Positions 58,992 to 62,564 of a DNA stretch of 64,000 nucleotides are shown piece by piece. Positions within the stretch are counted from its first letter, which is position 1. Each line of letters begins with the position of its first letter. The notes beneath the pieces are model-generated. The model was given only the letters and a program-made list of their open reading frames with translations, was not told where the DNA came from and made no database searches. Both the position numbers and the translations under genes were made by a program. The stretch is taken from NCBI RefSeq assembly GCF_009931435.1, contig NZ_CP043414.1, one strand, 5' to 3'. The DNA is from Escherichia coli (GTDB taxonomy: Bacteria; Pseudomonadota; Gammaproteobacteria; Enterobacterales; Enterobacteriaceae).

Positions 58992-59606
58992 TTATCCTTC
59001 GATAAAAGCCATCCCTGTAAACGTCCGTCGCGGGTTGCCACGTTCAATCTGGTGATGGAACATTCGCCGCTGCGATTTCAGCGCCGCGCTATTTTCCTGT
59101 TGCTGTTGCTCCAGCTTCCAGGCAATCAGCAATCGCGCCAGCCGTTTGTTGGCATGTTGGCTGCGCTCTGACTGAACCTTCACGCTAATCCCGGATGCCA
59201 GATGCGTGGCGCGTACCGCCGAGTCGGTTTTATTGACATGTTGACCGCCCGGCCCCGACGAACGCAGCGTCTCATAACGGATTGCATCCGATTGTTCCTG
59301 CTCATCAGCGGTAAAACGCCCAATGCCCAGAAACCAGTTTTTGCGCCCATGATGAGGCCGATACGGGCTTGGGCAAATCCACTGAATAGTGCCGCACCAA
59401 CTTTCGCTTAATGCCCATGCGTTATCGCCATCCAGAGAAATCAGCGCCGAACGCAGCGTGTCAGAGTAGCGGCCCGTTTCTGTTTCCAGCACCGTTACCG
59501 CGACGTCTTGTCGGGTAGCTTCTTTAATCAACCTGTCCAGCGCCTTTTTCACTGCGAGACAACATTCTTCCGGTCCCTGAGCTGAGGAGAGTTGCAGCAA
59601 GATCAT
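58992..59606 (-). CDS. prfH: peptide-chain release factor homolog PrfH (intact)
   Basis: 204 aa from [15 protein letters not shown]; contains GGQ motif ([12 protein letters not shown]); ATGA overlap with the rtcB2 stop. Confidence 0.9.
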
Positions 59607-60754
59607 CCTTTTTTCCCTCCACTGTTTTTGAGCGTCAGCACCGGACGCAGTCGCGCGGCAGGAATAATTAAACCGGCCTGCACCAGACATTGCACCACAC
59701 TTTCAGCCGATTTATAGGCTTGTGGCGCTTCTTCAAAGATGAGTTGTTTATCGCGACAAATTACCCGACCGCCAAGTTCAGTACGTGAGAGTTGCGTCGC
59801 CGTGTATTTCGCTGCCAGACGCCCTTTACACTCGGTGCGCCCCCATTTACGCCCTGCCCCATGCGCCAGTGAGTGAAGCGTTTTTTCGTTCGCAACAGGT
59901 TTAACCAGCCAGGAGTAATCACCGCGTGAACCGGGAATAATCACCAGACCGTTGTCATCCGGCGTAGCCCCTTTACGGTGTAACCATCCTTGTTGATCGC
60001 CGATTCGACATGCGCTAACAAAGTTATGCGCCACATCCAGAACCGAATTTCCGTTGGCCTTAACTTGTTGCATTATGCGCAAAGCGATCAGCTGGCGATT
60101 AATACGCGCAAACGCCAGCGCATCATCATGTTCCGCAATATAACTTAGCGCGTCGTCACTGCCTTCCGGCAAACCATGATGCGAAAACGAGGCAATATGC
60201 CGCTGTAAAATAGACTGCCCTAAACCACGCGAGCCGCTATGGACCAGCAGTTGCAGATGCTGCGCATCCAGACCTGACAGTGCAAACAGTTCCGCATCGA
60301 TGATTTGATCAATCTGTTGCAGTTCTGCAAAGTGGTTACCGCCACCGATAGAGCCAAGCGCGCAGCGCCACGGATGCTGTGCAAACGCTGACGGCAGGTT
60401 TTCCTCCAGCCAGCTTTCTTCAGCAACGTCATCCAGCGCAGATAATCGCTTTTCAAACTTATCGGCGTTGTATTTACGCGCGAGAATATCTGTTTGCCAT
60501 AGCGCCATACCGCAGCCGATATCATTGCCGACCAGTGCCGGGTAAAAACGGCCTACGGAGAAGAACGCTGCGCCAATCGGATAGCCGCGTCCTGGGTGTA
60601 AATCTGGCATCCCTACGACGCGTTGCATGTCGGGTAAATTTGCCGTGGTGTGTAATTGTTGGATCGCTGAACTCTCGATCCACAGGTCATCAGATGCGAT
60701 GGTAAATACCGCATCGGATAAGGGACGAATATATTTGCCCATGTACCATTCCAT
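59603..60754 (-). CDS. rtcB: RtcB-family RNA ligase (RtcB2, intact)
   Basis: 383-aa ORF; position where K-12 has the ykfJ pseudogene. Confidence 0.88.
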
Positions 60755-61059
60755 TTATACTCGTCATACTTCAAGTTGCATGTACTGCGACTGCGTTCGT
60801 TCACCCCAGTCACTTACTTTAGTAAGCTCCTGGGGATTCACTCGCTTGTCGCCTTCCTGCAACTCGAATTATTTAGAGTATATAAATATAAAAATCAGGA
60901 AATGGCAGACGAATCCAGGGCAAGAAAAAAAGAATTAATCCTGGAAAGGTCTGCAAAGAGTCATTGATAAAGGATTTTTCATGATTTACCTCCTTGCAGT
61001 TTGTGGAATAAGAAAACGCGCACATATTAGGCGGGCGTTATTTTCATTGCAAGCTGGAT

Positions 61060-61512
61060 TTAGTGTTGCGGTTTATATCGCATATGAAAATTAGTAAACC
61101 ACGCTCCCCGGCATTCAACGCGCTGCTGCTTAACTGTCTGAAAACCATAACGTTCAAAAAAGGGTTTTGCGGTTATGCTGGCATCTACCGTAAGTTCGGA
61201 TTCAGACTTAATCAAAGGTTTTAACAAAGCGCTGGCAACCCCGCAGCGGTTGTATTTCGGATCAACAAATAACATATCGATATAATGCTCAATGCAGGTA
61301 ATAAAGCCGACCAGTTGTGTATTAATCACCGCAACCCGCACTTGTGATTTCGCGAGTTTCTCTTTCCATCGATGTTCATCAATCTGCGCCCAGGCGGCAA
61401 TTTGTTGTGGTGAATAATGCTGACTGGCGGTCATCGTAACCGCTCTAATAAAAATAGCGCATAGCTGCTGAAAATCGCCAGGCTGATAGTCTCTTATTTG
61501 TATATTATTCAT
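61060..61512 (-). CDS. yafP: GNAT-family N-acetyltransferase YafP
   Basis: 150-aa ORF immediately after dinB with a 4-nt gap/overlap. Confidence 0.85.
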
Positions 61513-62564
61513 AATCCCAGCACCAGTTGTCTTTCCATTTGCGGATCAAGCAACGTCACATGCAGCCCCACCAGTCGCACACCGCGTCCGCCCCGGCGTT
61601 CATCCCAGGTTTTACGCGCAGTGGCGATCAAGTCAGCTTTATTCAGCCGCGGCCAGACGTGTTCCTGGGTGGTTTGCTGAAAATCGTCGAACTTTAATTT
61701 CACCCCCTGGCGGGCAATCAGTAAATCAGGTTTTACCTTTGCCAGACGACGCTCCAGTTCAGGGTAAAGCCGCTCGATGATCGCTTCACATTCAGACCAG
61801 TGATGAATATCTTCCGCCATGGTGCGTTCTACACCGACGGATTTTCGCAACCTTTCGCTGTTAACGTCGCGCTCGTCAATCCCCTGACTACGCTCCCACA
61901 AAATGCGACCAAATTTGCCAAAGCGTTTAAGCAACGTCACCAGATCACACTTTTGTACATCGCCGCAGGTCCGCAGCCCCATCGCTTCCAGTTTTGCCGC
62001 CGAGACTTTGCCGACACCGGGAATTTTTGCCAGCGGTAAGGTTTGCAGAAATGCCGGGACGTCCGCCGGCGTAATCACAAACTGTCCGTTGGGTTTATTC
62101 ATATCAGAGGCGATTTTGGCGAGAAACTTGACCGGCGCAACGCCCGCAGACGCCGTCAGTTGCAGCTCGTTGAAGATCGTCTGGCGGATTTCCTGAGCGA
62201 TAAGGGTCGCAGAGCCGTGGCAATGTACGCTGTCGGTGACGTCGAGATAGGCTTCATCCAGTGACAGCGGCTCAATACGCGATGTGTAGCGAGAGAAGAT
62301 TTCGCGGATATGATTTGACGCTTCTTTGTAGGCGTCAAAGCGCCCTGGAAGCAAGGTGAGATGCGGACACAGTTTGAGCGCCATGCCGGTTGGCATTGCG
62401 CTACGCACGCCAAATTTACGCGCGGGATAATTGGCGGTGCTGATCACCCCCCGGCGTTCGCGGCTGCCGCCAATAGCAATAGGGATATCGCGCAGGGCGG
62501 GATTGTCGCGCATCTCCACCGCGGCGAAAAAGCAGTCCATATCCACATGAATGATTTTACGCAT
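61509..62564 (-). CDS. dinB: DNA polymerase IV
   Basis: 351-aa ORF beginning [26 protein letters not shown]. Confidence 0.97.

Follow-up and report, generated by a model that had tools for sequence, protein, structure and literature searches.

A full-length ERIC copy in the yafP-rtcB2 spacer of Escherichia coli, most likely a tolerated passenger within a conserved candidate leader

In the stretch of Escherichia coli DNA considered here, i.e., 64,000 nucleotides of contig NZ_CP043414.1 (assembly GCF_009931435.1), hereafter called the window, the spacer between the genes yafP and rtcB2 holds two inverted repeats, one enclosed in the other, and these nested repeats are one full-length copy of an already known dispersed element, namely ERIC, also called IRU or RU-1. 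Downstream of the spacer, rtcB2 and prfH encode the only known system rescuing and re-ligating ribosomes cut in the decoding centre (PMC9304027, PMC9223846). Taken as a whole, the locus is very probably best explained as an ERIC copy lodged in a predicted loop of the candidate rtcB2-prfH leader, where it is most likely a tolerated passenger and not a dedicated control element. The original prediction had viewed the repeats as specific to this locus and had not recognised a dispersed ERIC in them; once recognised, the mobile element is no longer confused with a dedicated regulator, and the ERIC alleles explain spacer-length differences of 72 or 127 bp between strains.

According to an inverted-repeat search, both repeats are parts of one structure, namely an imperfect palindrome of 127 bp at 60756-60882 with a G+C content of 46%. 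The inner stem-loop occupies 60804-60835, with arms (60804-60818 and 60821-60835) that are 80% complementary, and the outer repeat, marked by the 9-mers CAAGTTGCA at 60772-60780 and TGCAACTCG at 60858-60866, grows to 25-nt arms at 60756-60780 and 60858-60882. Both inverted repeats put forward earlier are present in the sequence, each coordinate then given for them being 1 nt too low, and only part of the structure had been noticed, the two repeats belonging to a single palindrome. RNA of the minus strand, i.e., the transcribed strand, folds into a single long hairpin at -57.9 kcal/mol vs. -26.9 +/- 3.3 kcal/mol for shuffles (n = 200; z -9.35), none of which is as good, and the plus strand folds at -46.9 kcal/mol (z -7.5 relative to shuffles). 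A folding energy much better than that of shuffled controls, which had been proposed as a check on the repeats, is thus found for the palindrome.

The family is said to have been described under the names ERIC, IRU and RU-1 by Sharples and Lloyd in 1990, by Hulton et al. in 1991 and by Wilson and Sharp in 2006. In a gapless full-length alignment, the window copy is identical to the E. coli RU-1 consensus at 109 of 127 positions and to S. enterica SeRU-1 at 119 of 127, the 127-nt consensus and the Salmonella copy being those printed by Delihas in 2007 (PMC2759123). As the sequence printed there is the reverse complement of the Wilson and Sharp consensus, the canonical orientation of the latter corresponds to the minus strand of the window, i.e., to the sense of rtcB2. 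Both primer sites of ERIC-PCR are recovered, ERIC2 at 60798-60819 on the minus strand (21/22 match) and ERIC1R at 60820-60841 on the plus strand (20/22 match), the primer sequences having been confirmed from published papers using both together. The termini read TATAC...GTATA, likewise in 30-31 of 52 other copies, and the element is intergenic. In reviews, ERIC is presented as a non-autonomous miniature element of 127 bp with terminal inverted repeats and TA ends, co-transcribed with its neighbours (PMC2229807, PMC10969869, PMC3184786).

A BLAST search with the 127 bp gave 55,163 places, spread over 5425 of the 5426 complete E. coli genomes, the median number per genome being 11; within the window, no second copy was detected with a 20-mer from the conserved ERIC core at up to 3 mismatches. 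In a scan of one genome per species, the core motif occurred at at least 120 loci in at least 10 genera, the matches listed including Yersinia, Citrobacter, Serratia, Pectobacterium, E. albertii, Pluralibacter and Pseudescherichia, among others. From the matches listed, 52 gapless copies were aligned with the window copy and the resulting 53 sequences were scored on the minimum-free-energy structure of the latter. Pairing is possible in 87.3% of cells, as against 31-37% after a shift of the 3' partner by 1-3 columns, and compensatory changes affect 25 of 43 pairs vs. 12.0 +/- 1.7 in shuffles, none of 500 shuffles reaching the observed value, with a covariation score of 0.186 vs. 0.101. The terminal arms, i.e., helices 1-2, pair in 89-95% of cells and show compensatory changes in 17 of 21 pairs, and RNAalifold run on the ERIC copies gave the same hairpin independently. 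As such, the covariation proposed earlier as a check does exist, namely across paralogous ERIC copies. In the orientation of the transcribed strand and outside the core fixed by the search pattern, G.U pairs (134) exceed A.C mismatches (80), which is a modest hint of constraint on the RNA of the minus strand. Among individual copies, one beside yafQ/dinJ (e.g., NZ_CP027461.1, 402026-402152) is 99.2% identical to that of the window, with 1 mismatch in 127, and suggests recent copying or gene conversion between neighbouring ERIC copies; in K-12, yafQ is situated a few kb away from the yafP-rtcB2 locus.

At the yafP-rtcB2 site itself, the element occurs in three states within E. coli. In a systematic sample of 59 chromosomes taken down the ranking of all E. 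coli genomes, the site was full in 18 (~31%), short in 25 (~42%) and empty in 16 (~27%), and at least 80% of the query was covered in 3932 of 5425 genomes, corresponding to ~27% empty. The full ERIC is found in the window, in RMDEC465 and in K-12-like strains, where rtcB2 is a pseudogene; a copy without 72 internal bp is found in UTAK-14 and O104:H4; and the element is absent, with a locus exactly 127 bp shorter and rtcB2-prfH intact, in SX48, TUM17543 and W224N. The copy of K-12 MG1655 (NC_000913.3, 253,339-253,465) carries no annotation. In the orthologous spacer of Citrobacter, Kosakonia and Cronobacter no ERIC was found, and these genera, together with Pragia, Proteus, Providencia and Pseudomonas, are ERIC-free at the site yet keep the neighbouring leader presented below. 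In Salmonella enterica (LR134141.1; locus L130, 1180-1303), a full ERIC immediately follows dinB; it is situated upstream of the leader and inverted relative to the E. coli copy. In Klebsiella spallanzanii (locus L131, ~1377-1440), the E. coli position is taken by 64 bp of an ERIC that has lost internal sequence, flanked by the U-rich tract on one side and by the ribosome-binding site of rtcB2 on the other; this remnant could stem either from one old insertion common to both lineages or from more than one insertion into this A/T-rich loop. None of the outgroups Citrobacter, Salmonella, Kosakonia and Cronobacter has the element at the E. coli position, and the E. coli empty allele, TTCATAAATGG, is similar to their sequences, e.g., to TTCATACATGG of Salmonella; emptiness thus seems to be the ancestral condition. 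Conservation in orthologous loci, on which the locus-specific view of the repeats had been made to depend, was not found, the site being empty or the element deleted or elsewhere.

Some further observations concern the haplotypes. In the short-ERIC haplotype (UTAK-14; locus L002, 1544-1560), the flank on the rtcB2 side is CCGTAAATGG vs. CCATTTAT in the window (60751-60759), which looks like a small inversion of CATTTA, and the identity of this haplotype, only ~93-94% across the region, suggests an old divergent allele. For the window, the 2.1 kb at 59500-61600 has a best E. coli match of 98.2%, most matches being at 93-95%, and the 501-bp spacer region has a 99.8% match in one strain; the rtcB2 allele is relatively divergent, with best protein matches 94% identical.

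The rest of the spacer, i.e., the 177 bp at 60883-61059, is nearly invariant within E. coli and conserved also between genera (Table 1). Its upstream end holds a promoter-like element, in which 10 sequences from 9 genera all carry TAnnAT, 7 of them with TTG at the -35 position, and which is conserved also in Providencia, where the upstream gene differs; the segment 61024-61052 is presumed to act as a promoter. A mini-open reading frame (mini-ORF) follows, with AAGGAG (AAGGGG in Citrobacter) exactly 7 nt before its ATG in 12 genera. It is present in 12 of 13 genera, including Providencia, Proteus, Pragia, Limnobaculum and Pseudomonas, and since it is kept in these despite different flanking genes, it appears to travel with rtcB2-prfH. 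The mini-ORF is missing only in Intestinirhabdus alba (locus L137), where prfH is broken into 144 aa and 61 aa and lacks the RF-1 domain, a pattern consistent with decay of the whole leader and operon unit. Its length differs by whole codons only (13, 14 or 15), its stop always comes 21 nt after the CTT of a conserved CTTTGC, with TAA and TAG interchanging, and the encoded motif [LI]-C-[RG]-x-x-Q-x-stop is found in 11 of 12 genera, Pseudomonas having L for Q. For Leu-Cys, the codons used are YTT TGC throughout, an indication of constraint at the nucleotide level.

In a comparison of 12 genera, the RNA structures predicted for the leader pair in 87.3% of cells vs. 21-51% when slid and show 11 double changes vs. 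3.6 +/- 1.4 in shuffles, with none of 500 shuffles reaching the observed count (12 sequences). A conserved hairpin, recovered in the RNAalifold consensus, has the mini-ORF stop codon in its loop; its lower stem pairs in 72 of 72 cells (100%), with compensatory changes at 3 of 6 pairs, e.g., GCGGAC/GTCCGC in Proteus, GCAGGC/GCCTGC in Pragia and GCAGAT/ATCTGC in Entomohabitans, and likewise in Limnobaculum, Pseudomonas and Providencia. A helix between regions 1 and 2, where CTTTGCAG and CTGCAAAG, the latter in the Shine-Dalgarno region, are complementary, forms in the minimum-free-energy fold with and without ERIC; it was left out of the formal count, its arms being nearly invariant and the E. 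coli row being displaced there by one column in the MAFFT alignment. Directly 3' of the conserved hairpin, region 4 is a candidate anti-Shine-Dalgarno segment, which pairs with 60746-60752 in the minimum-free-energy fold, again with and without ERIC. At this partner, the rtcB2 ribosome-binding region, GGAWTGGTAYATGGGC is conserved in 11 of 12 aligned genera, Providencia and partly Pseudomonas differing, and region 4 covaries with it in two states, in that loci with GGAATGG carry CCAT.TCC and loci with GGATTGG carry CCAA.TCC. Matched types give a duplex energy of -8.2/-7.8 kcal/mol, compared with -5.8/-5.5 kcal/mol for mismatched types and -4.4 +/- 2.1 kcal/mol for shuffles.

The candidate leader, comprising 60884-61052 and 60740-60752 on the minus strand, is apparently undescribed. 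None of the Rfam families scanned against the spacer and 12 orthologous loci covers it, the mini-ORF is without RefSeq annotation both in K-12 and in the sampled E. coli records, the literature on PrfH and RtcB2 yielded no description of a leader or of native regulation of the operon, and the peptide MKNPLSMTLCRPFQD was found neither in the literature searched nor in the supplements of one E. coli Ribo-seq paper. In its layout, the leader resembles a leader-peptide attenuator and may function as such. As for the separate control of rtcB2-prfH once ascribed to the repeats, a promoter-like element and a structured leader do appear in the spacer, but they belong to the conserved sequence neighbouring the ERIC and not to the ERIC. 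In the same Rfam scans, a match to STnc350 was discarded as chance-level (E = 0.32, wrong strand), and in Klebsiella (locus L131, 3170-3293, between prfH and pepD) a match to Thr_leader at 37.4 bits, for a gathering score of 55, is probably due to chance. The leader hairpin together with the U-rich tract was considered and rejected as a canonical intrinsic terminator, ~9 nt lying between the stem and the U run. A small hairpin on the minus strand, AACGCCCGC...GTGCGCGTT followed by UUUCUUAUU at 61015-61039, overlaps the promoter-like -10 and could be a weak yafP terminator or part of the leader 5' end.

The position of the spacer end depends on the start of rtcB2, for which two in-frame ATGs occur in 60740-60754. 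The longer form is conserved in Enterobacteriaceae (MEWYMG or MDWYMG) with coding-like substitutions (GAA/GAT, TAC/TAT). As the ATG at 60754 does not keep the frame in Pseudomonas and its extension is broken in Providencia, it was rejected as the start and the ATG at 60742 is preferred. The length of 305 bp given to the spacer in the original prediction holds only with the ATG at 60754; it is 317 bp with the ATG at 60742, which is that of the RefSeq orthologue annotation. On the other side of the spacer, dinB is directly followed by yafP with a 4-bp overlap (61509-61512), and the toxin-antitoxin pair yafN-yafO is absent, as in many E. coli, while it is present in K-12 and W224N.

Table 1. Location of the ERIC copy, the candidate leader elements and the surrounding genes in the window.
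Feature	Position	Strand	Remarks
Full-length 127-bp ERIC/IRU/RU-1	60756..60882	minus	Consensus alignment, dispersal, hairpin z -9.35
ERIC terminal inverted-repeat arm, rtcB2 side	60756..60780		TATACTCGTCATACTTCAAGTTGCA on + strand; holds 9-mer 60772-60780
ERIC terminal inverted-repeat arm, yafP side	60858..60882		TGCAACTCGAATTATTTAGAGTATA on + strand; holds 9-mer 60858-60866
ERIC central inverted repeat (inner stem-loop)	60804..60835		Overlaps ERIC2 and ERIC1R primer sites
Promoter-like element	-35 TTGCAA 61052-61047; 17-nt spacer; -10 TAATAT 61029-61024	minus	Outside ERIC, just after yafP stop
Shine-Dalgarno AAGGAGG of mini-ORF	60995-60989	minus	Within region 1
Mini-ORF	60935..60982	minus	15 codons, MKNPLSMTLCRPFQD + TAA (60937-60935); candidate leader peptide of rtcB2-prfH
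Region 1 and region 2	CTGCAAGGAG 60999-60990; CTCTTTGCAG 60960-60951	minus	Complementary (inverted-repeat search)
Conserved hairpin	60905..60954	minus	Mini-ORF stop codon in loop
Conserved hairpin, lower stem	GCAGAC 60954-60949; GTCTGC 60910-60905		GCAGAC in Cys-Arg codons
Conserved hairpin, upper stem	CCAGG 60944-60940; CCTGG 60919-60915		
Region 4, candidate anti-Shine-Dalgarno	60905-60898	minus	CCATTTCC; directly 3' of conserved hairpin
rtcB2 ribosome-binding region and RefSeq-type ATG	GGAATGG 60752-60746; ATG 60742-60740	minus	Predicted 3' partner of region 4
dinB	61509-62564	minus	
yafP	61060-61512	minus	
rtcB2	59603-60742, or to 60754 as longer open reading frame	minus	
prfH		minus	Gene order dinB, yafP, rtcB2, prfH
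pepD		plus	

In such a setting, the insertion point of the ERIC, 14 nt before the rtcB2 start codon, would have been an A/T-rich stretch predicted to be the loop of a conserved leader helix. As the element lies between the promoter-like element and leader ORF on the one hand and the rtcB2 start on the other hand, it should be transcribed within the 5' untranslated region of rtcB2-prfH, and this in the orientation expected to give the more stable RNA hairpin. Folds of the leader with and without the ERIC show the same surrounding architecture, with the ERIC as a self-contained hairpin in the helix loop; by folding on itself, it would place its two ends side by side, and the leader structure around it is accordingly predicted to withstand the insertion. 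In the short allele, the predicted fold differs from those of the full and empty alleles, a single minimum-free-energy prediction on which nothing was built. Because of its polymorphism in E. coli and its absence from Citrobacter, Kosakonia and Cronobacter, the ERIC is not considered a dedicated rtcB2 regulator. Most likely, it is a passenger that is tolerated and close to neutral, and that would at most modulate mRNA stability or processing in the manner reported for Yersinia ERICs.

Several points weigh against this interpretation. Co-transcription of the ERIC with rtcB2 depends on a promoter-like motif that agrees with the consensus at 8 of 12 positions and that the scan, with its threshold of 9/12, did not report. 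The search pattern had fixed columns 53-77 of the family alignment, and the relatedness of the copies inflates the shuffle control; the slid-partner control, which keeps this relatedness, is nevertheless clearly lower than the observed pairing. As for the history of the insertion, in view of the 64-bp Klebsiella remnant at the same site it may be ancient, with several subsequent losses, and not of recent date. Moreover, filled and empty alleles differ by 127 bp and not by the 125 bp expected for a TA duplication, and the 5 nt adjoining the junction differ (ATTTA vs. TCATA), because of which a TA target-site duplication is not scorable. Finally, a full or partial copy is kept in ~73% of E. coli and may have some selective value.

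As an alternative to the passenger interpretation, the ERIC may have been exapted at this locus, being cut by RNase E or RNase III in the rtcB2 5' untranslated region, by which the leader with its anti-Shine-Dalgarno would be detached from the rtcB2 coding region, or altering mRNA half-life, and the alleles with and without ERIC would consequently express RtcB2-PrfH differently. Such a scenario, compatible with the ERIC identity and rivalling it for the function here only, appears rather doubtful. According to two reviews, Yersinia ERICs lower the levels of upstream transcripts in an orientation-dependent manner via an RNase E site exposed in the terminal repeat (PMC2229807, PMC10969869); as such, the RNA-processing element suggested in the original prediction holds as something documented for the family and not as a locus-specific structure. 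Exaptation would also fit an element that separates region 4 from the rtcB2 ribosome-binding site, the excess of G.U over A.C, which hints at constraint on the RNA, and the short-allele fold unlike the other two. However, three alleles coexist at high frequency in E. coli, which suggests weak selection, and the Yersinia effect was on upstream genes, whereas the upstream unit here is the short leader only. A different matter is a structured leader or riboswitch-like hairpin evolved locally for the control of rtcB2-prfH, which a very stable hairpin directly upstream of the rtcB2 start codon might evoke; the orthologue comparison refuted it, the same sequence recurring ~11 times per genome at unrelated loci while being absent in ~27% of E. 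coli, despite an intact operon there, and in ERIC-free genera that keep the neighbouring leader, which makes it highly improbable. With an element that is dispersed, absent in ~27% and internally deleted in ~42% of E. coli, the "structured leader" and the "regulator-binding site" once proposed for the repeats both find no support.

Just as improbable is a terminator or transcriptional insulator ending the SOS-driven dinB-yafP transcript, as might be expected of a stable hairpin downstream of yafP. The remark that no U-tract follows was borne out on either strand and the promoter/terminator consensus scan returned no terminator site; the sequence after the hairpin is AAUGGAAUGG, unlike an intrinsic terminator, where a G+C-rich stem is directly followed by a U-tract. 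In addition, the hairpin comes 177 nt past the yafP stop, downstream of the promoter-like element and mini-ORF, and strains without the element have the same gene arrangement. A site for a DNA-binding regulator, or a cruciform acting at the DNA level, would suit the palindromic sequence, and the compensatory changes would be just as expected if the hairpin formed in DNA, but it is very unlikely too, as ERIC has no DNA motif besides the terminal repeats listed in reviews (PMC2229807, Table 1), the element is dispensable at the locus, and the bias of G.U over A.C favours constraint at the RNA level. The least credible possibility is an independent small-RNA gene related to the Vibrio antisense RNA AS5 (Rfam RF02818, V_AS5), the covariance model of which matches the minus strand at 60760-60883 over model positions 1-129 (E = 2e-9), with the same hairpin layout, and similarly the Salmonella ERIC (L130, 1180-1303). 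At 46.7 bits for a gathering score of 96, the element is not a member of this family, and the consensus scan found neither promoter nor terminator flanking it. Since the model matches ERIC copies end to end at 40-47 bits, V_AS5 appears built on a Vibrio ERIC-like repeat, and the match is explained by V_AS5 itself resembling ERIC.

While the ERIC is regarded as a passenger, the leader in which it sits may have a function of its own. Tentatively, and as a possibility somewhat short of being probable, an undescribed cis-regulatory leader would travel with rtcB2-prfH from Enterobacterales to Pseudomonas, combining a promoter, a translated ORF, alternative pairing, a masked ribosome-binding site, stalling-triggered induction and ERIC variants. 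Of the translated 13-15-codon ORF (...LCRxxQx-stop), a part of the coding sequence would have two alternative partners, the Shine-Dalgarno of the ORF itself and a segment further downstream, and the anti-Shine-Dalgarno adjacent to the hairpin would mask the rtcB2 ribosome-binding site. Ribosomes stalling on the leader ORF or failing to terminate it, e.g., those with colicin E3-cut 16S rRNA, would then remodel the RNA and turn the ribosome-repair operon on. As an insertion in the loop of the masking helix, the ERIC may produce natural expression variants among E. coli strains. The conserved leader ORF and the covarying helices make the question of how RtcB2-PrfH is switched testable, and the full, short and empty ERIC alleles are ready-made variants of the leader geometry.

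Comparable to the rtcB2 leader are leader-peptide translational attenuators such as ermC and cat, the tnaC leader, and the leader of the ribosome-splitting factor HflXr. Like these, the rtcB2 leader has a strong Shine-Dalgarno and a short ORF forming an arm of alternative helices, and the downstream ribosome-binding site is predicted to be sequestered. It has no sequence similarity to them, however, and the genes that it precedes code for a ribosome-repair ligase and a homologue of a release factor.

With respect to the repeat, Correia/NEMIS in Neisseria, RUP in S. pneumoniae and YPAL/RU-2 in Yersinia are likewise small, non-coding elements with terminal inverted repeats and TA ends, which form long RNA stem-loops and for which RNase effects on flanking transcripts were reported (PMC2229807, PMC10969869), but their sequences and hosts are unrelated to those of ERIC, and Correia elements further differ in carrying IHF sites or promoters and in being cut by RNase III. 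The REP/BIME sequences of E. coli are also intergenic, repeated, palindromic and transcribed; as characterised in PMC3733652, though, REPs are G+C-rich units of 20-40 bp, in contrast to the 127 bp, 46% G+C and ERIC consensus match observed here. From ERIC/IRU/RU-1 itself, nothing distinguishes the window copy, which shares the length of 127 bp, the full-length sequence, the central repeat with the ERIC-PCR primer sites, the TATA...TATA termini, the long imperfect hairpin, the intergenic location beside a start codon, the multiple copies, the presence or absence according to strain and the internally deleted variants; what is proper to this copy is its place in the predicted loop of the rtcB2-prfH leader helix and its three-allele polymorphism.

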